From the IMG/VR virus record IMGVR_UViG_3300047462_000185, positions 42,638 to 106,637 of that record: DNA of 64,000 nucleotides. The stretch is one strand, 5' to 3'. Shown here in pieces: positions 131 through 42,460 of this stretch (position 1 is its first letter; each line of letters begins with the position of its first letter). The stretch is from a virus. A model generated the notes under the pieces. It saw only the letters and a program-made list of their open reading frames with translations, made no database searches and was not told the DNA's origin. The translations under genes and the position numbers were made by a program.

Positions 131-580
131 CTATTCTGGCTTTTCGGATGAGCCCTGGACCGGCGCCGGCGGCGGCTCAGGCCCCGCGCCTTCCTTGTCG
201 TCGGGCGGAGCGGCGGGCGGCTGGTTGATCTTCTGGATCAGGTCATGGGCCAGTTCGGCCGCAATCTTGTAGTGCAACTCGCGATCGAGGGCCGGCATGT
301 TGGTGCGCCGCATCGTCTCCTCGATGATCAGGAAAGCGGCAAAAAGCATGTCCTGCATGGGCCGCTCGTTCAGCAGCGCGACGAGGATATTGTATGTCGC
401 CATCGTGGCGGGAAACCGCATCTGAAGCAGGGCGCGTAGCTGAACGTCGAGGAATTTGGTGCGCTCGTGCGCCACCACCTCATCGGGCGAAGGGACAATG
501 TTGAACAGCCTCATCGCGTCTTTCTCGTCCATGACTTCCTCGGCCTGGTTGAACAGGTAGGCCGCGGCGCGGCCTTTCAA
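131..580 (-). CDS. hypothetical protein
   Basis: ORF in leftward operon, 4-nt overlap with next gene, followed by a family-1 repeat. Confidence 0.6.
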   Translation of the reverse strand: MKGRAAAYLFNQAEEVMDEKDAMRLFNIVPSPDEVVAHERTKFLDVQLRALLQMRFPATMATYNILVALLNERPMQDMLFAAFLIIEETMRRTNMPALDRELHYKIAAELAHDLIQKINQPPAAPPDDKEGAGPEPPPAPVQGSSEKPE

Positions 581-10851: not shown

Positions 10852-10895
10852 TGCGGGTCTCCTCAGTCCTGGCCCAATTGCCAGGGGACCGCCGA

Positions 10896-23534: not shown

Positions 23535-24074
23535 TTGCCCTCGAAACGCAAGCGTCGATATCACCGGGCCACAGCGCGTCACGTGACGCTGAGCCGCGAC
23601 GCGGCCGGCACCCTCTCCCTGTCTCGAGTCGTTCACCCGCCGAAGGAGCGGCGCCAGCACGACGTCGTGGTGCGCCAGGAGCGCATCGGAGAGGGTGGGC
23701 AGCGCCTCATAGCCTCCGCGATCGACAGGCCCACCGCGCTTGACCAGTTGGCCGCGGCCGGCGCGCTGGGCGAGGCAGAGGCAAAGCGGCGCCTTCTGGA
23801 TGCGTCGGATTGGTTCAAGGAGCGGCTCGAGCTGCTCCAGCTGCGCGCCGTCGTCACGGCCGCGTTCGAGCGGCAGGCCAAGGGCGAGCGTGGCATGACG
23901 CCGCGGCAGGTCAGGGCGGACGCCGAGATGAAGCGCCTCGCCAAGGCGATCGGCGCCGAGCCGTTCAACCGGCTGTTCGACCTGCTGGTCTGGGACGTGC
24001 TGCCCCTGGTCGAGCCGCGCCGGCGCGAGACGGTGGAGGCGTTGGACGCAGCGGCGCGCCACCTTAAGCTGTGA
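23535..24074 (+). CDS. hypothetical protein (possible late-gene regulator)
   Basis: ORF ending ALDAAARHLKL, followed by TTGACA and a terminator. Confidence 0.6.
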   Translation: MPSKRKRRYHRATARHVTLSRDAAGTLSLSRVVHPPKERRQHDVVVRQERIGEGGQRLIASAIDRPTALDQLAAAGALGEAEAKRRLLDASDWFKERLELLQLRAVVTAAFERQAKGERGMTPRQVRADAEMKRLAKAIGAEPFNRLFDLLVWDVLPLVEPRRRETVEALDAAARHLKL

Positions 24075-24199
24075 AACGGCTTGACCTGACCCGGCGCTTT
24101 GCTTGACATTGGGGTCTGCCAGAAAAGCGTCTTTGAGGGGTTCGAGGGCGGCCCTCGCCGGTGCAAGCCGGCAGGGTGGACGGAGCGGCGGAAACGACG

Positions 24200-24233
24200 A
24201 AACCCCCGCAGGATTGCTCCTGCGGGGGTTTTT
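24200..24233. terminator. intrinsic terminator (possibly bidirectional)
   Basis: AAACCCCCGCAGGA-TTGC-TCCTGCGGGGGTTTTT. Confidence 0.85.
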
Positions 24234-26103
24234 GTCTCAGTCGGCAGCGCTGCCGAGCCGGTCGCCCAGGTCGATCACCTCGCCGGCGAGCGGCTCGGGC
24301 GACGGGGACTTGGTGGGCCAGAGCGACATGGCGCCCTTCACCAGCGTATAGGCCGGCGGTGCCAACACGGCACACGCCAGCTCGACGCGGTTGCGGGGCC
24401 GCAACGTGCTCATCATTGAGGTCAGCATGGTCGTCTCCTATAGGGATTGAGACTTGGCTGGGTCTCGTCAGCCTACGCGCGAGGGCGCGCAGATACCGGG
24501 TCGCATGGGGTGGTTCGGGCGACCACCACACCCCCATGCCTCGCAAATGTGGGCCGAGCATGATCCGGCTCGACGCGGCAGCGCATCATTCGTGCGCACT
24601 TCCTGGTCGCCCAAAGGGTGAAGTCCCGGTTTCAGTGTGTCGGCCGGTCCCGGGGGAACGGGTGGAACCGGCCGACCTGGTCACGCCACCGTCAGGGTCT
24701 CTTGGGCGGTGGCTACCGGGACGTGATCAGCTCCAGCAGGCCAAGGGCTGGGCGGGCGAGCGATTGTGTTGGTTCGACACGTGTTGTCCGAACCGTGGCT
24801 TCGCGGCTGATCACGATCCACGCGCCGGCGCTTTCCGTCGTCATGGGCAAGCCCATCACCGGTGCGTTTCGGTGCGTTGGCCCGATCTGGTGACGTCCGC
24901 GCTGCCTCGGGTGACGCGGGTCGGAATCGGCTCTTGGCGGTATCTTGAGAATTGTCGAGAGAGTTGCCTGAGGTGCCGATACGTCTTCGATCGGTATCAT
25001 CCTCTGATCCTGGCGTCCTTCGCCTGGACCGCTCGGTCGACGCGCCAGTGATTGGCAGCGTGTAGCACCGCTGAAGGGAGTGCGAGCGTCCTGTGGGATG
25101 ATCGGCTGCTGCGCCAATGGCGCGCTGCCTGAGTGATAGATGGGGAGGCGTATCATTCCTTTCAAGGGGTGAACCCTTTCATCGGCCTGCATCGAGCAGG
25201 AAGGCCCGCCGGAGCGGGTTAGTCGGTGGGAGGCCGGTCGACGAAGACCGAGCCAACCTGCGTGTATGAGAATTTCCCGATATGCACGCTGGTGATGAAA
25301 TTCACGCGCAGGCCAGCTTCATGAGCGGCTTGGATGGCTTTGTTGAGCTGATCAGACCTTTGGCGAATCAGCACTTCGTGTTCCTCGTCTGTCACGTCAG
25401 CCGTCCTTCGCGGTGATTTTCAGCTTCCAGTCGCCAACGGTGTTGCCGTTGATGTCGACGGCGTTGCCCTCCATGAGTCCGTTTTGAATCTGGTGGGAAA
25501 CCTCGCGCAGTATGCGGGTCATTTCGCTTGCGCCATAGCCGTCGTTGAACGCGGCGTTGCCTGTGTCGATCTTCATTCTGAATATGTGGTTCTCCTCAGT
25601 CCGGCGGGATGCCGGGCACCGGGTCAGCCGGTTTCGATTGCGTTTACGTCGGCGATACGCGCTACGGTCTGGCGCTTGCCGTCAAGAGTCACACCTACGA
25701 CGGAAGGGATAAACCCTGCCGCATCGTAGAAACGCACCACGCGGAAAATCAAAGTGGGATATCCGATCAAGGTGAAGTGGCTCATCTTTCGTCTCCTCAG
25801 TCCGGCGGGATCGCCGGGCACCGGCTAGGCCGGTTTCGTCTCAGGCCATTCGATGCCTTCCGCGACGCCTGCGAGATGATAGATGTCGCGGGGCGATACG
25901 TCAGTAGGAGCCGAAAGACGGCAAGCGTTCTGCGCGAAGGCGACCTTTGCCGCAGGCATTCCGGCTGCTGCGTTCCGGGCGAGATGCCGCAGATGTGGGT
26001 AGCGCCGCACGTAGGCGTCGAGAACTGATTGTGGGATCATTATTTTCTCCTCAGTCCGGCGGGATGCCGGGCATCCGGCCAGGTCGATCCTGGCCGGGTT
26101 TCG

Positions 26104-26784
26104 CTAAAAGGTGAAGGCGCGAATCACGGGCGCGCTGCCGTCAAGCGGCGCGTAGCACGTCCGGACCGAGGGCCGGTCGATCTGCACGGTTAGCGTCCCT
26201 GTGGGATGCGCGTTCTCCGCCTCGATCATCACCCGGGCCAGCCGGTAGATTGTCGAGCAGTTCAGCTCGTGGGCGCGCGCTTCGGTGATGGTGCCCTCCG
26301 TGGTGAAGAGCGAGACCTCGCCGCTGAGCCATCGCGTCGCTCCCTCCATAGTCAGCCCGGATGGACTGTAGTCCAGCGACCCGTAGGGGCGAGGCTGGAT
26401 GGAGATGTGGGACACATGGCTCCGCTCCACCCGGGCAACGTATTGCCTGATCGGCGTGGGAGAAGCGGCGTCGGCCTGGAAGGCGCTGATACGCTCGAGC
26501 TGCAGGCAGAGCAGCTTGATGGCTGTCTGATATTCGCTGTCCTTCGGCCTTTTCTTGCCGAGATAGCGCCAGAACGCCGGCAGGGAGCTGGTGCGCATGA
26601 CGTGGTCATGGGCATACCAGAGCCCGTGGCTGATGTTCCGGGGGTCGGGTTCCTCGTTGGCGCGGCCGTCCATCTGCTGGATGAAGGTCCGCAGATGGGG
26701 GTGGGTCGGGGCCGTGGTGCCGATCGCACCGGCGCCGGCCAGGCCGCGCACGAAGTCCGACGTCATGTCGTAGAGCAAGGTCAT
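26104..26784 (-). CDS. hypothetical protein
   Basis: ATG directly after family-2 repeat SD (AGAAAGG). Confidence 0.7.
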   Translation of the reverse strand: MTLLYDMTSDFVRGLAGAGAIGTTAPTHPHLRTFIQQMDGRANEEPDPRNISHGLWYAHDHVMRTSSLPAFWRYLGKKRPKDSEYQTAIKLLCLQLERISAFQADAASPTPIRQYVARVERSHVSHISIQPRPYGSLDYSPSGLTMEGATRWLSGEVSLFTTEGTITEARAHELNCSTIYRLARVMIEAENAHPTGTLTVQIDRPSVRTCYAPLDGSAPVIRAFTF

Positions 26785-27048
26785 TAGTGTGCCTTTCTGC
26801 CGGGAAGCGCCGGCTGATCGCGCTGGATGGGGGTCCAGCAAGGCCCCTGGTTGGCTAGGGGTCTTCGAGCGTCGGGCCGTCATTGTGGCTCGCCAGGATC
26901 GGCGCGCCGGTGCGATGAGCCTCTGCCATGCGGCGAGCTTGGTCGCGCGTGTAGCCCGCGCGCTCGAGCGCGAGAATGAGCGACATTTCGCTATTGTGGT
27001 CGTTCGACCATTTGTCGTTGTGCCGTCGCTCGAAGAAGTTTTCTTTGC

Positions 27049-27412
27049 TCACGGCAGTTCGCCGGTCGGGCGGCCGAGCTTGCGCCGCAGCCGGTTGATC
27101 TGCGGCTCGTAGAGGGCGCGCGCCGCCGGCGTCGCAGCGGCTAGCTGCTCGGCGATGAACTGGCGGTCTCTTGGGCATTTGGCGAGCCTGGATGGGGCGA
27201 ACCGGGTCGACATCGACCACTCACCGGGTCGACATCGACCACTCGCCCCCGATCCGCTTGCAGGCCGCCTCCGCGGCGTTCCTGGCACGATTGGCGGCCA
27301 GGTCTTCAAGGTGTGCGATCTCGGCGCGGATGCGCTGGATCACCTCGTCACGGGTCGGACCGGGCGTGGTGAGTGCAGGACCGCCGTTGTGGCCGATTTT
27401 CGATAGTGGCAT
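27049..27412 (-). pseudogene. small gene frameshifted by a 22-bp tandem duplication
   Basis: ACCGGGTCGACATCGACCACTC repeated at 27201-27222 and 27223-27244; GEWSMSTR appears in two frames. Confidence 0.7.
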
Positions 27413-27691
27413 GGGAGGCCTTTCTGCCGGCGAAGCGGCCGGCTGGACGCGCTGCACGGTGTGCAGCAAGGCCCCGCTAGGCGGGGGTAGCAGGCCCCTC
27501 AGGGCGCATGGAGTTGGGATGGGTGGGCAGCTGGCACCGCTTCGTCGTGAAGCGCGCCAGGCGCCGGTTTTCGCGTCGGATGAACCGAACCGCACTGGCC
27601 AGCGCCGCGACCTGGTCGGTCGCGAAGCAGTCGAGCGTCACGTAGTTGTGGTAGCTCGGGTGCCAGAAGCGATAGGTGAACATCTGCACGG

Positions 27692-27895
27692 CTACGCCGT
27701 CATGATCAGCAGCTGCTCGGCGCCATAGACTGCCGCCTCGCCGCACATCTCGCACTCGCCGCCTTCCATGTCGGGCTCGCATTCCTCGGCCTCTGCGCCG
27801 CATGCGGTGCAGAAGCCGGGGCTGTCGAGACTGGTTAGGTGCCGTTCGACCGCTTTCATGATGCGGTCCGTCGTGATGGACTCATGGATCTTCAT
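27692..27895 (-). CDS. small zinc-ribbon protein
   Basis: PGFCTACGAE..ECEPD....CEMCG..AVYGAEQLL. Confidence 0.75.
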   Translation of the reverse strand: MKIHESITTDRIMKAVERHLTSLDSPGFCTACGAEAEECEPDMEGGECEMCGEAAVYGAEQLLIMTA

Positions 27896-27960
27896 GGGTA
27901 TGCCTTTCTGCCGGTAAGCGCCGGCTGATCGCGCTGCACGGTGTGCAGCAAGGCGCCCGG

Positions 27961-28413
27961 TCACGCCGGGCTTTCGGCAATCGTTTTCGGCTTGAACATG
28001 ACCAGCGAGATCGCGTCGGCCGTGAGGTCGATGATCAGTTCGGTCATGTTCGGCGGATAGGTCGCGAGTGCGGCATTCAGCTCGGTGAGCAGGATATGCT
28101 CCGAGCCATCGTCGCCGCCGAACAATCTGTTCTTCGCCTCCCACCAGTCGTCGAAGTCCATCTTGGTCGGATCGCACTCGCGTGCGTAGACCACGAAGCT
28201 CTTCGTCTTTGACTGGTTCGGATCAGCGGGATCGGGCGGCACGAGCAGGCCCGGATCGCCGTTGCTCATCAGGTAGACACCAACATCGCCGACCAGCATC
28301 AAGGCAGGCTTCGGTTTGCCTTTCTTGCCGTATTGGCGGTGATGCTTCGGGGCTGCGGCGCAATGTTCGATCAAACGTCGCACGCCTATCAGGTCGAAGT
28401 GTATCCGAGACAT
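27961..28413 (-). CDS. DUF3085-family protein
   Basis: LMLVGDVGVYLMSNG...VYARECDP...DWWE....FGGDDGSE. Confidence 0.85.
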   Translation of the reverse strand: MSRIHFDLIGVRRLIEHCAAAPKHHRQYGKKGKPKPALMLVGDVGVYLMSNGDPGLLVPPDPADPNQSKTKSFVVYARECDPTKMDFDDWWEAKNRLFGGDDGSEHILLTELNAALATYPPNMTELIIDLTADAISLVMFKPKTIAESPA

Positions 28414-28673
28414 GGGTTGGTCCTTTCTGCCGGTGAGCGCCGGCTGGACGCGCTGGACGAGGTCCAGCAAGGAGCTTCACCCCTCTGCATCTGGATCAGA
28501 TTGGCGAGGCGTGAAGCAAAGCACTCCGATCAGCAGGCCAGCACCTAGCCCGATTAGGCCAAGGCTGCCCCATCTGAGCAACGTGCTGATGAGGAACAAA
28601 AGAGTCATGGGTGTGCCTTTCTGCCGGATAGCGCCGGCTGATCGCCCCGCATCGGATGCGGGAAGGCCCGCCG

Positions 28674-29153
28674 TTAGGCGGGGATAGGCTTCTCCGGCGC
28701 CAGCGGTGCATCGATCCGCAGGAACTCGTTGATGGGGTTGTGGTCCGCCTGTTCGTAGGCGCTCGTGTCGATCTCGCGCAGCTCGATGGTCTGGCTGTAG
28801 GCGACATGCCAGCACACGTGATCCTTGGAGGTCACGTGCGCGACCAGGCAGTCGAACCTGTCGCCCGGAGCCTTCGAAATGGCGGTCTCGGCGTTCATTC
28901 GGTCCACCGGATTTTCCATGTTGAGATAGCGCCAGAACATCCAGACGTGGCTGGTGCGCGAGTCGATCATTGGCCATTCCAGGCCTTCCTTGTGCTGGAT
29001 GATGTCGCCGCGCTTGAAGGTCGGGACGGCCTTGTTGAACTGGGCCAGCCTGGCGCGCAGCTCGACCACCTGAGCCTCGGGAATGTCCCGATGCGTTTTC
29101 TGGTCGACCGTGCCGCGGGCCGCGCCCATCAGGTCTGAAAGTGAAAGAAGCAT
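28674..29153 (-). CDS. hypothetical protein
   Basis: ATG after family-2 repeat. Confidence 0.7.
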   Translation of the reverse strand: MLLSLSDLMGAARGTVDQKTHRDIPEAQVVELRARLAQFNKAVPTFKRGDIIQHKEGLEWPMIDSRTSHVWMFWRYLNMENPVDRMNAETAISKAPGDRFDCLVAHVTSKDHVCWHVAYSQTIELREIDTSAYEQADHNPINEFLRIDAPLAPEKPIPA

Positions 29154-29714
29154 GGATGTTATCCTTTCTGCCGGGACGCGCCGGCTGATCGCTCCGCGGG
29201 GATCGCGGAAAGGAATGAGCCGCCCCACCCGATTTGGGCAGGGCGGCTCGTTGGTCAGATACTCGGCTCGGGCCGCTCCTCGATCACGACATTGCCGAGA
29301 TCGATGGCGGGGCTGGGAGCCTCGCGGGTGAACATCGCCTTGGCACGGCGCATGCCGGCCTGGCTGGCGGTGCTCAGCTTGCTCATCCCGGTCGTGGCGC
29401 AGCGGTGGGCCTGGTAGGCGCCATATGCGGCGACACCGATCGTGCCGCAGATCACCACCACGGCGGCGAGAGCCTGGACGCCTTGAAGGGCCCCTTCACG
29501 GAGCATGGGAGCGGCGGCGCGGCCCACGTTGACCATGACGGGAACGGCGGGACGGATGATGGACTGGAGCATGGGGTGTTCTCCTTGGGATTTCGCCGGA
29601 AGCGCCGGCTGAACGCCCTCAGCTGAGCTGAGGGATCCCGGACCGCGCCACTTGTGGCGCAGCCCTCGCGCGGGGGCGTTCGCATCGCTGCGGCCCGCAC
29701 GACCTAGGGATTGA

Positions 29715-30062
29715 TCAGGCATTGACGACTTGTTGCAGCACGCCGCGCAGCTGGTCGCGATGAGGGGTCAGCAGTTCGGCAGTCGCCAGAATCTGCAGCC
29801 CCGTCGCGAAGCAGTTGCGTGACCGTGTGATCGTGTCGAGATGATCAGGGGGGAAGTCTGTCCCGACCAGGGCCAGGATGATCATCTCGTTGCGGCGCCG
29901 GCGCCGGGCCATGCCGATCCGGATCCGCTGTATCAGGTCTTTGCCTTCGTCGTAGAGCAGCTGGTATCCGGCCGAGAGGGTAATGCCGCCGACCAGGGCG
30001 CCGAGCGCAACCGCGCCGCGCCTCAGGAAGGGCCGGGCCAATGCTGTGGACATGGGGGTCAT
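29715..30062 (-). CDS. hypothetical membrane protein
   Basis: AAGGAG SD; hydrophobic N-terminus. Confidence 0.6.
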   Translation of the reverse strand: MTPMSTALARPFLRRGAVALGALVGGITLSAGYQLLYDEGKDLIQRIRIGMARRRRRNEMIILALVGTDFPPDHLDTITRSRNCFATGLQILATAELLTPHRDQLRGVLQQVVNA

Positions 30063-30573
30063 GCGTCTCTCCTTGGTGTTTCGACCGGTCGGACCGGCCC
30101 TTATCGAGGGTCAAACGTGACCCGAAACCACAGCGAGACTCATGTTTACACAGATATATGTGGTTTGAAAAAGAAGAATTTCAAGACCCGAAACGATTTC
30201 CGCCCCGACTGCCGAGGTTCGCCTGTGGGGTTGGTCCCACCCGCGTCGCGGGTTCGCGCCTGAAGCGCTCGTCGGGGGATCTGGGTGGCGGCCCTCAATG
30301 GATCTCGTATCGCTCGATCATGAGCCAGCCGCCGCATCTCTGGGGCTTGCAGGTGCAGGCGCCAGGGACGGCGATCATTTCGACCGAGCCGTCTGGGCAG
30401 GACAGGATGCAGCCACGTGGCGTGGTGTGGACGTGGTAGCCGCACCCCTCGTAGTGGCGGGCCGACATGTTGATGAACTGGTCGAGCGAGACGACCTTCT
30501 TGGGTCTCTGGCGCGCAGCCATTGATGCTTCTCCGTGTCGTGAGGCGCGGGGATCCACGCCTTCCCGCCCGGC

Positions 30574-30876
30574 TCAGCCGGGTTCGCCTTGCGGCTCATC
30601 AGGGGATTTTTTCGGCACGAAAGATTTCATGCCGCCGTCGTTTTCGATCTGATGGTGATTTTTCAGCGTATCGGACAGCAATCTGGCGACGCTGCCTGAA
30701 CTGAGAAAGCCGATGATTTGCTTCTGATCGACGCCTAACTTGGCGACGCACTCGTTGTAGATTTCCATCGGCGAGAAGTTGCGATAATCCTGCGTGAGTT
30801 CGACGCGCACCAGCGCATAGATGACGTTGGTCCCGTCGCTCAGCAGGGTTTTGATCGTATTGGGCATATCTGACAT
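30574..30876 (-). CDS. hypothetical protein (paralog of 30953-31219)
   Basis: AAGGAG SD; YALVRVEL motif. Confidence 0.65.
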   Translation of the reverse strand: MSDMPNTIKTLLSDGTNVIYALVRVELTQDYRNFSPMEIYNECVAKLGVDQKQIIGFLSSGSVARLLSDTLKNHHQIENDGGMKSFVPKKSPDEPQGEPG

Positions 30877-30952
30877 GGGGATCTCCTTATGTTGGTCCCG
30901 CCCGGCCTAGCCGGGTTCGCCCTTGGCGGGCTCGTCTGGGGATTTGGGACGG

Positions 30953-31219
30953 CTAACGAACATCGCGGTGCTCAGCTTGCTCGGTCATTGGCATGTTGCG
31001 CATAATGCCGAGCAGGATATTACGAGCTGCGGATGAGTTCATCGTCGTGATAACGGTCTCGGTCGACAACCTAGCGTGGCGCACCACGTCGGACTTTATC
31101 TCATCCGGCGCGTAGTTCTTGAGCGAATAGGGAAGCTCGAACCGCACCAGGGCATAGCCCACCTTCGGTCCGTCTAGCTCGGCCATCTGCTTGATTATTG
31201 CCATCGGGTGCATTGGCAT
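30953..31219 (-). CDS. hypothetical protein
   Basis: AAGGA SD; YALVRFEL motif. Confidence 0.65.
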   Translation of the reverse strand: MPMHPMAIIKQMAELDGPKVGYALVRFELPYSLKNYAPDEIKSDVVRHARLSTETVITTMNSSAARNILLGIMRNMPMTEQAEHRDVR

Positions 31220-31285
31220 GGGGATTTCCTTCTGCTGAAGCACATATTGATGTGCTTTCCCGCCCGCACACAAGCGGGTTCGCGC

Positions 31286-31651
31286 CTATGCGGCGCTCGT
31301 CTGGGGAAGCTCGGCCAGCATCTGGGGTGAAAGGCGCAGGTTGGCGTGGGGACGCCGCGCCGCCTCTTGGCAGGCCATGTAGCCGATTGCCTGGCGAATC
31401 TTCTGCGCCGCGGCGTGAACCGTGCCGTCATAGGCCGGTTTCGTCACCACGGGCACAGACCAACCGGCCACCTTGTGCAGGCCGCATTGGAGAGCGCCGC
31501 CGGCATGCAAGCTCTGAATCGCCGTCTCGAAGGCTTTCACCTCGTGGGGCTGGACCACGGCGCAGAACCGTAGCTCGGCCGTGGTGTAGGTCTGGCGCTG
31601 GTTGATCGCCATAGCAAGCAGGACGCGCCGCTCCATTGGATCGGTGAACAT
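31286..31651 (-). CDS. hypothetical protein
   Basis: AGGAG SD; stop codon lies inside a hammerhead-like motif. Confidence 0.65.
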   Translation of the reverse strand: MFTDPMERRVLLAMAINQRQTYTTAELRFCAVVQPHEVKAFETAIQSLHAGGALQCGLHKVAGWSVPVVTKPAYDGTVHAAAQKIRQAIGYMACQEAARRPHANLRLSPQMLAELPQTSAA

Positions 31652-31961
31652 GGGAATCTCCTATTTGGTTGGTCCCACCCGCCGCAGCGGGTTCGCGCCG
31701 TCAGGCGCTCGTCTGGGGAAGGAACTGGTCGGCCGGCGCCGCGCTGTCGCGGATCGCCTCGGCGATCGCGGCCGTCACCTCGTCTCGATCGGGCCGGAAC
31801 GGCCGGTGATCGAGGGTCAGGTCGGCCGAGACGCGGATCACGGCGGCGCGCCGAACAGAGCAGGGCCAGCTGGACAGTGTCATGCGGAACATGGGGATAT
31901 GCCTTTCTGCCGGGAAGCGCCGGCTGATCGCGCTGGATGGGGGTCCAGCAAGGCGCCCGCG

Positions 31962-32363
31962 CTAGGCGGGCTCCAGGACATGCTCCTGGGCAGGAACGGT
32001 TGGCCTGGTGGTGAGAGGCGTGCCATCGGGGTGCTCGCCCCACGCCTTCAGGCGCTCGATCGCGAGATCGAACATCTTCAGCACGGCCGGGTGGCCATAC
32101 ACGTCGTTCAGGTGAATGACGCTTAAGGCTCCTGGCTCAACCGCTCTCACGACCGAGGTCAGGGTCGGTGTGCCGCGCTCACCGTCGAGCTCGGCATTTT
32201 GGCTGACGAAGCGACAGGCCCCGATGGCGCACCACCGGACCGCGTTCGCCTGCAAAGCGAACGCGGATTCGCCCGAAGCATCGCGTGCCGCGGCAAACCG
32301 GCAATACCGATTTGGATCGCTGATCAGCGCCCGCGCCGCGACATACATCTCGAATTCGGTCAT
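31962..32363 (-). CDS. DUF6197-like phage protein
   Basis: ARALISDP..YCR.AAARD...AVRWCAIGA...LND..GH..VLKMFDLAI. Confidence 0.7.
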   Translation of the reverse strand: MTEFEMYVAARALISDPNRYCRFAAARDASGESAFALQANAVRWCAIGACRFVSQNAELDGERGTPTLTSVVRAVEPGALSVIHLNDVYGHPAVLKMFDLAIERLKAWGEHPDGTPLTTRPTVPAQEHVLEPA

Positions 32364-32625
32364 GGAATCCTCCGTGTGGCCCGGAGCAGGGGCCGGTTGA
32401 TCAAGCTCCTCCCCCGTGCCACATCGGCATGGGATTCGCGGTCCGATCAGAACCGCTCGTCAGGGACAAAAAGAGGCGCCCTCCCTATGGAGCAGAGAGA
32501 GCGCCTGAGTTTAGGTCTAGGAAAGCAACCAAGGGGGGAACGATCCCTTGGCCTATCAGAAATGGTTACGAAACCGGCCAAGATCAAGGCTTTGTGAGCC
32601 ATAAAACACATGATAATGTGAGTCA

Positions 32626-33609
32626 ATGCCGGTCCCCACGACTCTCACCCCTGAGCAGGAACTGCTGCTCGAACAGGACTACAGCAACCCATCCCTCTCG
32701 CTGCGCGCCCTCGCCGCCAAATACGGGGTCGACAAAAAAACCATCCAGCGCGCCGCCGTCCGGAACCGATGGGTCCGAGACTATGGCAAGCGCGCCAGAG
32801 AGGTGGCGAATGCCATTCTCTCGCAACATGCCAACCAGATCGTCGAGCAGATCGCTGACGACGCGCCACAGCCGCCACAAAGTCCCCAGCCTCCCACAGG
32901 ACCAAAAGCCGTTGTGGTCGACCACCCGAAACGCCATGCGCCCCGCAAAAGCGCCCCACCGCGCCTGACCGTGGTCAGCGATCAGCCCCAGAATACCGCC
33001 CAACCACACCGACCCACCGCAAACCCCAGCGAAACAGCGCCGCTCGGGGATGCCGCCCCACCACACGCCCCATCGTCCCAAAATACGTCGCTAGATGAAA
33101 TGATGCAGCGCTTCGAGGAGGACGTGCGCGCCGAGGTCGCCGTGAATATCGGCCGCATCCAGGCCGCCGTCACGCTCCGCCAGCTCTACGAGACGCGCCA
33201 GTTCCACGCGACCTTCACTATCATGCAGCAACTGGTGCTGGACTGGCTCGGCGATGACCCGGAGAAACGTGAGCGGGCCGCCCATAAGCTGTTCGGCGGT
33301 GGCGCCAGGACCTCGATCGGCCACGTCATCAAGCAGCTGGCCGACGCGATGGGCATGAACGCGGCGCTCGAGCGCAAGATCGTGGGGATCGTCGATCAGC
33401 CCGATCAGCCGGCCGGCCAGCCTGGCGCGCCGGTCGAGGTGAACGTGACCCAGGTCATTGGCGAAATGCCCACCGAGAAGCTTCGGGTGCTCAACGAGGC
33501 GCTGGCTGAGATCCAAGGGAAGCGGCGCGACGCGAGGTCCCTCCCCGTCCCGCCTGGCTATGAGCCGCCGCCAGGGTCCACATCCGGTCCAGAGGAGGCG
33601 CCACGATGA
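32626..33609 (+). CDS. putative terminase small subunit
   Basis: N-terminal HTH SLRALAAKYGVDKKTIQRAA..NRWVRD; position upstream of TerL. Confidence 0.65.
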   Translation: MPVPTTLTPEQELLLEQDYSNPSLSLRALAAKYGVDKKTIQRAAVRNRWVRDYGKRAREVANAILSQHANQIVEQIADDAPQPPQSPQPPTGPKAVVVDHPKRHAPRKSAPPRLTVVSDQPQNTAQPHRPTANPSETAPLGDAAPPHAPSSQNTSLDEMMQRFEEDVRAEVAVNIGRIQAAVTLRQLYETRQFHATFTIMQQLVLDWLGDDPEKRERAAHKLFGGGARTSIGHVIKQLADAMGMNAALERKIVGIVDQPDQPAGQPGAPVEVNVTQVIGEMPTEKLRVLNEALAEIQGKRRDARSLPVPPGYEPPPGSTSGPEEAPR

Positions 33610-33821
33610 TCTGGTTCATCCTGGTCGCCCTGCTCGCCCCGCAGGTCGGACTGATCGTCTTCGTGTTCTATGCGAACCGCGCCACGCTGCGCGCCCTGCG
33701 CGGTCCGACCGAGCAGGTGCGGATCGACGCCTATCTGGCGGTGCTGGACCGTCGTGTCGCTGTGCATAAGACTGGGGACCGACCACATGGACGTGTGTAA
33801 GTTCAGCACGATACGCTGGGG

Positions 33822-36398
33822 ATGAACCTGCCGGATGGTGTGGCCGAGATCAGGGACACGCTGCTCGCCAACGAGATCGCGATCCAGCGCGAGCTGGGCC
33901 GGCGCTCGTTCTACGACTTCTACAAGATGGCGTGGCCCGAGCTCGATCCGGCCCCGTTCGTCGACAATTGGCACATCGGGCTGATCTGCGACGAGTTACA
34001 GGCCGCGGCGCGCCGCGAGGTGCTGAACCTGTGTATTGCAATTCCGCCAAGGCACAGCAAGCCTGTGCATGAGGATGAGCCGGTTCTCACTGCCCGAGGA
34101 CGTATTTCATTGCGCGAAGTGGTGGTGGGCGATTTCGTTCTGACCCACATGGGACGCTTTCGGCGAGTCGAGGCGGTTCACATCCAGGGCGAGTTGCCTA
34201 CGCTCACGGTGCGCGCCTGGTCAGGTCGCGCTGCCCGTATGGCACCTGACCATCCTCTGCTGACGGCGCGTGGGTGGGTGCAAGCCCAGCATTTGGTTGC
34301 GGGTGACAGGGCAGCGGTCGCACGCATCGATGAGCAATGTGGGCAGGATACCGTCTCGGCCGAGGAGGCGCGACTTCTGGGCTATCTGGTGGGTGATGGA
34401 TCATGCACTCACTCGGCAATCAACATCACAGCTCTAGATGAGACTGAAATTGCCGATATCCAGGCATGCGCCAACACCCTCGGGATCGGGACGTCCATCA
34501 CACGCAAAACAAAGACCGCAGCGGTCAAAGTCGGATTACTCAATGACAGACTGAAAAACCGATGCGGTGCTGCGCATCAGCTTATCGATCGTGCTGGCCT
34601 CACGGGCAAGAATAGCTACACGAAGCGAGCTCCGCCTTCGATTATGGCCGCAACGCAGCGCATCATCGCCGAATTCCTGGCCGCCTACTGGGCCTGCGAT
34701 GGGTATATCGCGAAACGGGGCTTCCTAAAGGACGGTAGAATTCGAACTGATGTCTGTGTCGGTTGCGACACGGTCAGCCGAGAGTTGGCGCTCGATGTCC
34801 AGCATTTGCTTTATCGGCTGGGCGTAAACTCTCGCGTCAGGACGAAGGTAGCGAAGATCAAGACTAGGAAACAGGGTAGCGACACTTACACATCGTATTC
34901 CGTCTCGATGACGTCAGCTGATGATGTCGCGCGTTTTGCGTCGGCGGTCACAATTCCGCACGCCAAGCAAGCTCTCCTTGACCGACATAAGGGGCGCACA
35001 GACTTCGATAGGCCGCTCTGGCGCGATGAGATTGTGGCAATCGAGCAGAGTGAACCCGCGCCATGTCGATGCCTGACGGTTGATGAGGATCAAAGCTTCA
35101 CCGCAGGCGACCTGGTGGTCCACAACAGCCTGCTCTGCTCCGTGGCGTTCCCGGCCTGGGTGTGGACCTGGTGGCCCGCGGCCCGCTTCATCACGTCGAG
35201 CTACGATGTGGTGAAGCTCGCGATGCGGGACGCGCTGGCGGCGCGCCGGCTGGTGACCAGCGACTGGTATCAGACGCGCTTCCCCGAAGTGAAGCTGGCG
35301 GCCGATCAGAACGTCAAGAGCTTCTACCAGACCACGGCGGGCGGGGCGCGGTTCGCCTGTAGCCCGACGGCCGGCCTCACCGGTCATGGCGCCGATTTCG
35401 CGATGTTCGACGACCCGCACAACGTCACGAAGGGTGAGTCCGAGAAGGATAGGGACAGGGCCAGGACGTTCTGGTTCGAGGCCATGTCGCCCCGGTTCAA
35501 CAACCCGTCTCACGGGGTGCGGATCGTGGTCCAGCAGCGCGTCAACGAAGCTGACGTCGCGGGCGAGTGCATCCGGCGCGGCTATCATACAGTAGTTTTG
35601 CCGGCCCGGTTCGAGCGCGACCATCCGCAGCGCTCGCCTCGGGATCCGCGCCAGGTCGAGGGTGAGTTGCTTTGGCCCGACAAGTTCTCCGATGCGGATG
35701 TCACCAAGCTCGAAAAGGACATGGGGCAGTTTGCCGCGGCGGGCCAGCTGCAGCAGCGTCCCGTGCCGCGCGAGGGTGGGCTGTTCAAGCGCCACTGGTT
35801 CGAGATCGTGGACGCGGCGCCGGCGACGCAGCGCAGGGTCAGGTCGTGGGACCTGGCCGCATCCGAGAAGAAGGTCACGTCGAGCGATCCGGACTACACC
35901 GTGGGTCTGCTCATGTCGCTGTGCGACGGCGTCTACTACATCGAGGATGTGAGGCGTGACAGGCTCTCGCCGCACGGCGTCGAGCTGATGATCACGAACA
36001 CGGCCAAGCAGGACGGCAAAGGGGTGAGGATCAGGTTCCCGCAGGACCCGGCCCAGGCCGGCAAGTTCCAGGTCCGCTATTACGTGACGCAGTTGGCCGG
36101 GTGGATGCTGCACATCGAGCAGGAGACCGGAGACAAGGTGACGCGTGCCGATCCGTTCTCGAGCCAGGCCGAGGTTGGGAATGTGAAGCTGGTCAAGGGC
36201 GCATGGAACGAGGATTTCCTGTCGGAGATCGCGATATTTCCTGGGGGTGCGCACGACGACCAGGTCGATGCGGCGACGGGCGCGTTTCGGGCCCTGACGA
36301 GCGGCACGACGGGGATCATCGACTTCTACCGGCAGCAGATCGCGGCGCGTGACGCGGCGCGTGACGCGGCACGGGGTCCGGGCGACGGCACACGATAG
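33822..36398 (+). CDS. terminase large subunit with intein
   Basis: Walker A PPRHSK/S, TGHGAD..FDDP Walker B, QQRP, SWDLA, GDKVTRA, FPGGAHDDQVDA. Confidence 0.96.
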   Translation: MNLPDGVAEIRDTLLANEIAIQRELGRRSFYDFYKMAWPELDPAPFVDNWHIGLICDELQAAARREVLNLCIAIPPRHSKPVHEDEPVLTARGRISLREVVVGDFVLTHMGRFRRVEAVHIQGELPTLTVRAWSGRAARMAPDHPLLTARGWVQAQHLVAGDRAAVARIDEQCGQDTVSAEEARLLGYLVGDGSCTHSAINITALDETEIADIQACANTLGIGTSITRKTKTAAVKVGLLNDRLKNRCGAAHQLIDRAGLTGKNSYTKRAPPSIMAATQRIIAEFLAAYWACDGYIAKRGFLKDGRIRTDVCVGCDTVSRELALDVQHLLYRLGVNSRVRTKVAKIKTRKQGSDTYTSYSVSMTSADDVARFASAVTIPHAKQALLDRHKGRTDFDRPLWRDEIVAIEQSEPAPCRCLTVDEDQSFTAGDLVVHNSLLCSVAFPAWVWTWWPAARFITSSYDVVKLAMRDALAARRLVTSDWYQTRFPEVKLAADQNVKSFYQTTAGGARFACSPTAGLTGHGADFAMFDDPHNVTKGESEKDRDRARTFWFEAMSPRFNNPSHGVRIVVQQRVNEADVAGECIRRGYHTVVLPARFERDHPQRSPRDPRQVEGELLWPDKFSDADVTKLEKDMGQFAAAGQLQQRPVPREGGLFKRHWFEIVDAAPATQRRVRSWDLAASEKKVTSSDPDYTVGLLMSLCDGVYYIEDVRRDRLSPHGVELMITNTAKQDGKGVRIRFPQDPAQAGKFQVRYYVTQLAGWMLHIEQETGDKVTRADPFSSQAEVGNVKLVKGAWNEDFLSEIAIFPGGAHDDQVDAATGAFRALTSGTTGIIDFYRQQIAARDAARDAARGPGDGTR
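34062..35126 (+). mobile_element. intein with LAGLIDADG homing endonuclease, inserted in the TerL P-loop
   Basis: K|PVHEDEPVLT...APDHPLLT...LLGYLVGDGS...FLAAYWACDGY...CRCLTVDEDQSFTAGDLVVHN|S; codon usage differs from flanks. Confidence 0.93.
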
Positions 36399-41671: not shown

Positions 41672-42121
41672 AGCTGACCATCACCCAGACCGAGCAGATC
41701 ATCGACTACTGCGGCGTGCCGTGCCGCATGTGGCGCGGCACGACCGAGAAGGGCACTCAGATCTACGCCTTCATTCCGTTCATCGGCATCCTGGCCGGCC
41801 AGGACATGAGCGAGATGGACGAGTTGATGGAGGTTCCGGCGCCGCCCCAGGCCGACGCGCTGTTGCAGAAGACCGAGCAATGACCAAGCGAAACCCATAT
41901 CGCGGGGCGTGCTGGGACTTCCAGGTCAAGCCGGATTACACCGGCAAGAGCGAGATCGTTCGCGAGCCGGGCAAGCCGTATCAGATCAGCCCGATGGATC
42001 GGTCGCAGTTCAACTGCCAGGACTGCCTCGACAGCGGAACAGTGCTGGGTCCGGAGCGCCATCCGGTGTGGCCTAACTATGTGCCGTGCCCCACGTGCCA
42101 ACCTGTCGAGCAGACCTCCCG

Positions 42122-42460
42122 ATGACCGACCTCGCCGGCGCCATCGAAGCACTGGATCCTGCGCATCACGCGCATGTCGCGGCGTTGCTGGTCGACATTG
42201 TGGCGGCGCGGGAGTTGCTCGCGAAGCTCACGCCGCGCGAAGCAGATGTTCTCGACTGCATGACGCGTGGAATGCCGAACAAGGAAATCGCGCGGACCCT
42301 GGGCATTTCGCCGCGGACTGTGGAGATACACCGCGTGCGGGCGGCCAGGACGCTTGGTGTGCGGAGGTCGGCCGAGGTAATACGCATTGCCGTGCTGGGA
42401 GGTCGCATAGCACCCCCGTTCGACGGAACCGCATCGGAGAACCACCGTCGTGCCGGATGA
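42122..42460 (+). CDS. LuxR-type HTH regulator
   Basis: LTPREADVL..MTRGMPNKEIARTLGISPRTVEIHR. Confidence 0.9.
   Translation: MTDLAGAIEALDPAHHAHVAALLVDIVAARELLAKLTPREADVLDCMTRGMPNKEIARTLGISPRTVEIHRVRAARTLGVRRSAEVIRIAVLGGRIAPPFDGTASENHRRAG

Follow-up and report, generated by a model that had tools for sequence, protein, structure and literature searches.

Ten copies of a three-way-junction RNA with hammerhead-like geometry before the small genes of a phage

We analysed a 64,000-nucleotide stretch of viral DNA (the window; it covers bases 42638-106637 of an IMG/VR virus record of 106,637 bp, with a completeness rating of 93%), contained in DNA and RNA libraries from moss or plant metagenomes, in which a three-way-junction RNA element, hereafter motif 2, recurs within an array of small minus-strand genes at about 24.2-32.5 kb. 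The small genes of this array are orphans, with the exception of one that encodes a DUF3085 protein. Each end of the array has one strong terminator and no promoter-like or terminator-like site was found between the genes inside it, which suggests that the array is transcribed as one long message. Motif 2 has hammerhead geometry in every copy, and we consider that its fold probably descends from the hammerhead ribozyme; whether useful self-cutting persists is a more doubtful matter, taken up below.

A junction repeated through a small-gene array

A preliminary description of this DNA had listed eight copies of the element, all of which were found at their positions on the minus strand (c1 to c8; Table 1). 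Pattern searching, together with a covariance model built from the motif 2 copies (R1), located two further copies upstream of the window, at genome positions 41891-41947 and 42395-42451, for a total of 10 per genome, each just before the start of a small gene. In a record-wide search of the 106.6 kb, R1 scored the ten copies at 52.5-82.5 bits and the next match at 19 bits.

RNAalifold returned the same three-way junction that had been drawn by eye from the letters, formed by helices P1, P2 and P3 (stems III, I and II, respectively, in the hammerhead numbering used below). Covariation had also been claimed, and it was borne out on the covariance-model alignment, where 97.9% of cells are paired as compared to 85.6% in shuffles; none of 500 shuffles paired as highly and slid partners paired at 37-48%, all on an alignment that is itself made by the model. 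Two-sided changes occur at five of the six pairs of P2 and at three of the five pairs of P1, and such compensatory changes indicate selection on pairing beyond sequence alone. P3, the CGC that starts its loop and the GCG..CA junction are constant across the copies.

Pattern scans of viral, metagenome and genome collections gave mostly chance matches in G+C-rich DNA. The sole true homologue found outside the phage lies on a 1.7-kb soil metagenome contig (L095; 60.7 bits, 223-282, minus strand), between two same-strand open reading frames (ORFs) and downstream of a two-domain cold-shock-like gene, and this contig has no other similarity to the phage. Its element combines a different but paired stem I with GCGUUCA, a stem II of 6 bp whose loop starts with CGC, the same P1, U at position 17 and the extra A described below, so that the invariant features of motif 2 persist in a second setting. 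Relatives of the array were found neither by megablast of 26000-32500 against a phage collection nor by searches with two of the flanked proteins, and a distant phage reached via the portal protein (G001) has no motif 2 copy.

Other scan matches were rejected. Those on L101, L107 and L116 are a conserved coding stretch, and the 27-bit match on L105, which precedes an mreB-like gene, seems fortuitous. A further set, from A+T-rich phage contigs of about 36-42 kb (L009-L030), belongs to an unrelated hairpin-plus-Shine-Dalgarno (SD) element. This element, made of G and C only and conserved, lies just before the SD sequence of various genes, in most cases behind a terminator; its GCCGG hairpin closes a CGCAA loop and, with the UUGC before it, forms part of a 14-nt palindrome that allows two mutually exclusive hairpins. 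It shares stem II and the SD sequence with motif 2, lacks the junction and has no Rfam match.

Four readings of the copies as known types of site were also discarded. No sigma-70-like promoter sites occur at the copies, nor is the TTG of P1/P2 conserved. Of the hairpins that precede the copies (P0, see below), only the one at c6 has a U-tract, which speaks against terminators. Stem II is similar to the T-arm stems of the tRNAs that the phage itself encodes, with no T-loop and the wrong spacing. An integron attC site would be a single imperfect hairpin, which motif 2 is not; GTT/AAC ends are missing and the integrase of the phage is phage-type.

The likeness between copies is uneven, reaching 0.91 in the 3′ half (from the junction strand to the SD sequence) and 0.65 in the 5′ half. 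Copies c1 and c8, reported as identical over 54 bp, proved identical over about 54-55 nt, and one contig among those assembled from four metatranscriptome runs, our source of RNA evidence, joins 26789 to 31900 at these two copies and skips 5,110 bases (run X12, depth 3.7). In addition, P1 of the copy at genome 42395 contains a G.A mismatch, such as a recombinant would show, and in L095 the motif stands beside unrelated genes. These observations would fit a repeat that acts mainly at the DNA level, its conserved 30-nt 3′ half being a portable site of recombination by which small-gene cassettes are shuffled or deleted, with the RNA folds secondary. We regard this as very unlikely, because the compensatory changes in P2 and P1 point to selection on pairing and because the motif is always on the coding strand with its SD sequence at a fixed distance from the start codon. 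The joining contig could be either a recombination deletion variant or an artefact of assembly or reverse transcription, and it thus gives only a hint in favour of the cassette shuffling proposed earlier.

Hammerhead geometry and related elements

The preliminary description had remarked on a likeness to the type III hammerhead and set it aside because the core differs. The likeness holds, since hammerhead geometry fits all ten copies once the innermost U-A "pair" of P1 is opened. Every copy then reads, from its 5′ end, as stem III, one unpaired nucleotide, the stem I hairpin, 7 nt, the stem II hairpin, (A)GAA and the 3′ strand of stem III. Stem III (P1) has 4 bp, or 5 bp in c7, and is closed by A15.1-U16.1. 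Stem I (P2) varies in sequence and is paired in every copy, with a loop of 3-6 nt that is likewise variable; stem II begins with a G-C pair in all copies, and its loop always starts CGC. The strand between stems I and II is exactly 7 nt long in 10/10 copies and in L095. The unpaired nucleotide, position 17, is U in nine copies and C in c7, and is never G. The positions at which motif 2 invariably carries the hammerhead nucleotide are G5, A9, G10.1-C11.1, G12, A13 and A14; the ten copies and L095 all have G12 A13 A14 and the A15.1-U16.1 pair, which c7 keeps despite its divergent stem III. This copy is peculiar in three respects, namely its P1 (GGGAU/AUCCC), the C at position 17 and the absence of an extra A that the other nine copies and L095 have between stem II and G12.

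The 7-nt strand reads GCGAUCA in seven copies, GCGUCCA in two and GCGUUCA in one, and so does not match the canonical C3 U4 G5 A6 N7 G8 A9. Positions 3 and 8 are G and C instead of the hammerhead's C and G, and their complementarity is kept. Variants of the hammerhead core are on record: U3-A8 covariation occurs in nature, one viroid with U4C is viable and a phage hammerhead with A6C is weak (PMC3088659), the C3G/G8C double mutant partly restores hammerhead cutting (PMC11167929, PMC8495972), and for a G3-C8 variant higher activity is mentioned with G17 than with C17 (PMC3884650). A G at position 3 should accordingly disfavour C at position 17, where nine of the ten copies have U; in c7, as the last of these reports would imply, C17 could pair with G3 and trap the fold.

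Close to motif 2 in the same array lies a sister type III element with the core CCGAUGA, which differs from GCGAUCA at positions 3 and 8 only. These two positions are thus C-G or G-C in the type III elements of this genome, where no U-A case was found. Its P1 and P0 are as in motif 2, its stem II is different, the extra A is absent, and it has no loop matching the CGC of motif 2. In total, about 25 elements of the genome are hammerhead-shaped: 11 type III, nine type II-like and five type I-like. Eight type II-like elements, on minus-strand arrays, have the core CUGAGGA (seven) or CCGAGGA (one) and fit an arrangement of GAA, stem III (closed by A-U, or by G-U in one), two extra nucleotides (NC), stem I and an extra A before C3; one more has the canonical single N17 and the core CCGAGGA. 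One further copy, at 10866, has GAC where GAA is expected. The GAA of type II-like elements lies in the upstream coding sequence, so a role in the SD sequence cannot explain its retention. A stop codon often falls within the loop of their stem III. The type I-like elements have a C-G pair at the place of the expected A15.1-U16.1.

Known-family models recovered very little of this. Rfam was searched over the whole window at the gathering score, and over 24000-34000, 1-24500 and three pieces of about 100 nt at E<=10; as anticipated, no family matches motif 2 at either setting. Twister, twister-sister, pistol, hatchet, HDV-like ribozymes and riboswitches gave no gathering-score match and only chance-level matches at E<=10. 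Rfam reports none of the type II-like elements, and a single hammerhead-shaped element, of type I-like form, is matched by HH9, below threshold (17 bits, 30886-30953). The best sub-threshold family was M23 RNA (RF03006), with 17.7 bits at 27903-27968 and 14.5 bits at 25158-25211 as compared to a cut-off of 41.2; both hits depend on a hairpin with GAAAGG after it and are probably coincidental.

A new ribozyme candidate had been among the earlier proposals. A new ribozyme class appears less likely than a variant or descendant of the hammerhead, given that hammerhead geometry is exact in ten copies and that the core differs mainly by the swap at positions 3 and 8. The same holds for the broader suggestion of a non-hammerhead RNA class, be it a ribozyme, a ligand sensor, a protein-binding RNA or an operator, in which the junction GCG would pair with the loop CGC into a pseudoknot stacking P2, the knot helix and P3; as an operator, it would be shared by ten early genes under control of one phage translational regulator. 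All three proposed pairs are invariant in 10/10 copies and in L095, and the CGC is kept where stem II gains a pair (c2 and L095). The two nucleotides that separate GCG from CA may be AU, UC or UU, a freedom that would suit a linker, and loop lengths of 4, 0 and 2-3 nt would allow an H-type knot, so that the pairing is possible on steric grounds; the lack of a matching Rfam family also fits a separate class. On the other hand, covariation is seen at none of the three pairs, whose invariance speaks neither for nor against them, a 3-nt complementarity is cheap in G+C-rich RNA, the CCGAUGA sister lacks a matching loop, and the hammerhead accounts for more of the invariant positions at once. We therefore find a pseudoknot class unlikely. 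Descent of the fold from the hammerhead is favoured by the junction geometry, the conserved core positions, the CCGAUGA sister, the type I- and type II-like neighbours and the hammerhead literature, and we hold it to be probable.

Table 1. Motif 2 copies and associated elements in the window. Positions are window coordinates; the slash in a predicted cut separates the two flanking nucleotides.
Feature	Position	Strand	R1 (bits)	Core	Predicted cut	Start codon	Remarks
c1	26791-26844	-	79.1	GCGAUCA	26840/26839	26782-26784	
c2	27417-27473	-	70.4	GCGUCCA	27468/27467	27410-27412	stem II with one additional pair
c3	27902-27954	-	82.5	GCGAUCA	27950/27949	27893-27895	
c4	28421-28473	-	74.7	GCGUCCA	28469/28468	28411-28413	P1 UCCU/AGGA
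c5	28615-28667	-	77.6	GCGAUCA	28663/28662	28606-28608	
c6	29162-29214	-	71.4	GCGAUCA	29210/29209	29151-29153	P1 UCCU/AGGA
c7	29587-29639	-	52.5	GCGUUCA	29634/29633	29570-29572	variant copy
c8	31901-31954	-	78.4	GCGAUCA	31950/31949	31890-31892	
P0 hairpin, example	27955-27971	-					abuts P1; loop holds the stop codon of the upstream gene
Other P0 hairpins	31955-31971, 27472-27486, 26844-26861, 29217-29249, 29640-29665	-					
Sister type III element	25158-25205	-		CCGAUGA (C3..G8, A6)	25201/25200		P1 GCCU/AGGA
Type II-like elements	26099, 25834, 25632, 10866, 10572, 3544, 965, 575, 142	-					core doubles as SD sequence
Type I-like elements (five)	30235-31720	-		CUGAUGA, CCGACGA or CAGACGA			

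Elsewhere, the phage encodes a portal protein and a phage-type integrase. The gene for the large terminase (window 33822-36395, plus strand) is split by an intein with a LAGLIDADG homing endonuclease, and the phage also carries 25 tRNA genes and, downstream of the integrase, an alphaproteobacterial-type permuted tmRNA (50.7-55.2 kb of the window).

The ribosome-binding site and the fate of the message

The SD sequence had been placed inside the 3′ strand of P1, and we find AGAAAGG spanning the junction and this strand in nine of the ten copies, 5-8 nt before the AUG. Folding of c7 puts its SD sequence 3′ of P1, where a 3-bp extension of P1 covers it in part. Structure prediction thus shows the SD sequence masked by pairing in the uncut fold, and mostly free in the predicted 3′ product, which starts flush with the stem I hairpin. 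Directly before nearly every copy and abutting P1 is a G+C-rich hairpin, P0. The stop codon of the upstream gene lies 3-14 nt before stem III in 8/10 copies, mostly within the loop of P0; at c6 and c7 it is 40-76 nt away.

This anatomy suggests how motif 2 might act. Each copy would serve as the 5′ untranslated region of one small gene within the long multi-gene transcript. Before cutting, the 5′ strand of stem III would pair with part of the AGAAAGG ribosome-binding site (RBS) and mask it. Self-cutting, which the hammerhead mapping would place after position 17, would give the upstream message a 3′ end made of the stable P0 hairpin plus five nucleotides, and the downstream message a 5′-OH start exactly at the stem I hairpin; the masking strand of 4-5 nt would then drop off, leaving the RBS largely free. 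If the core is dead, the same anatomy would still mask the RBS, and a ribosome terminating 3-14 nt upstream could open P0 and P1.

RNA-library contigs give weak hints both for and against cutting. After the CCGAUGA sister element, depth is 40-130x on 24716-25187 as compared to 1.5-8x upstream in the four runs, the contigs of this abundant RNA begin within 13-27 nt downstream of the sister, the RNA stopping 13 nt inside its predicted end, and in all four runs cover is missing over 25188-25225, the interval that includes the predicted cut 25201/25200. At c6, two contigs end at 29198, 11 nt inside its predicted 5′ end. Uncovered stretches, and the places where contigs end at 25628 and 25828, fall on repeat borders and were not counted as RNA ends. 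The abundant RNA itself (24716-25190, minus strand, about 470 nt) is probably non-coding: its only long ORF has a G+C content by codon position of 0.65/0.57/0.65, as compared to 0.78-0.89 at the third position of real neighbouring genes. It has no Rfam match.

Several observations weigh against hammerhead descent, against continued cutting, or against both. The ten copies are paralogues within one genome, and only the one outside homologue on L095 was found. The Rfam hammerhead models detect neither motif 2 nor the CCGAUGA sister at E<=10, down to pieces of about 100 nt. All copies have C at position 4; position 6, where hammerheads require A, has A in seven copies and U in 3/10 and in L095; and the extra A, with C8-G12 and U7-A13 pairs, can lengthen stem II into what is the minimum-energy fold. 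Stem II is an invariant GCCGG/CCGGC with a CGC-first loop, an invariance that hammerhead catalysis does not need, and no conserved contact or complementarity between loops I and II was found across the copies. Conservation of GAAAGG need not mean catalysis, because it is also the RBS. Finally, RNA-library contigs bridge c5, c7, c8 and the type I-like element near 31677 uncut, possibly through DNA carry-over, and contig ends near repeats are partly assembly effects.

Many of these points would be expected of a non-catalytic device, a former hammerhead or an RNA that is merely hammerhead-shaped, that gates translation and stabilizes the message, the terminating ribosome melting P0 and P1 and so coupling neighbouring genes. 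The variable position 6, the fixed C4, the extra A and the contigs that cross c5, c7 and c8 speak for this reading, and the invariance of stem II and its loop would be that expected for a sequence-specific partner, which could be a phage translational repressor that shuts off ten genes together. The close stop codons in 8/10 copies, mostly in the P0 loop, and the masking of the SD sequence retained in the divergent c7 through its 3-bp extension agree with such a gate. Left unexplained are the exact hammerhead strand lengths, the retention of G5, A9, GAA, the A-U pair and the lone U/C, and the presence of type I-like and type II-like hammerhead forms at the same position in neighbouring arrays. 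Moreover, no candidate repressor was identified among flanked genes that are orphans but for the DUF3085 one, and the stop codons of c6 and c7 lie farther away, as noted above. A purely non-catalytic gate is a credible though less probable account. Self-cutting at a useful rate by the hammerhead-derived fold, predicted here from its structure, is only somewhat better placed, and we put it forward tentatively.

Motif 2 among known ribozyme arrays and phage repeats

Should motif 2 cut, it would represent a natural hammerhead lineage in which C3-G8 is inverted to G3-C8, with C4 and an inserted A besides, and current family models would be missing whole sets of phage ribozymes. Should it not, a ribozyme fold would have been reused as a plain regulatory structure. 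The succession of a stop-codon hairpin, a junction and a masked RBS is a natural counterpart of engineered ribozyme insulators. In RiboJ-type ribozyme-plus-hairpin insulators and at the RNase III sites between T7 genes, cutting by a canonical ribozyme or by a host enzyme, respectively, is proven. If cut, motif 2 would resemble these systems in the hairpin-protected 3′ end of the upstream message, the hairpin-capped 5′ end of the downstream one and the exposed RBS; it differs in that its cut is only predicted.

Repeats upstream of small phage genes are also familiar from the start-associated sequences of Cluster K mycobacteriophages and the promoter-early stem-loops of T4-type phages, for which control of expression or cassette exchange has been proposed. 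These are short motifs or simple hairpins, in contrast to the covarying three-way junction with hammerhead geometry of motif 2.

Single changes in the hammerhead core leave reduced activity (PMC3088659, PMC11167929, PMC8495972, PMC3884650). Positions 3 and 8 are complementary in these core variants as they are in motif 2, where G3-C8 is natural and fixed and is accompanied by C4, by the extra A and sometimes by U6, a combination absent from the core-variant literature cited here; the inversion to G3-C8 appears there only as a laboratory rescue mutant.

The closest parallels are the clustered hammerheads of phages and prophages, in which ribozymes flanking single prophage genes cut transcripts of about 2 kb in vitro (Perreault et al. 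2011, PMC3088659). Like these and the type III hammerhead (RF00008), motif 2 has the same three helices joined by strands of 7, 3 and 1 nt, and like the clustered phage elements it occurs between small same-strand phage genes, many times per genome. It departs from the type III model by its core, GCG(A/U)(U/C)CA instead of CUGANGA, by the extra A and by the invariant stem II and loop, and from the clustered phage hammerheads in that its cutting is a prediction only. Hammerhead arrays between phage genes are thus already known; what is unusual in this phage is the variant core of motif 2, and that the family models miss it.

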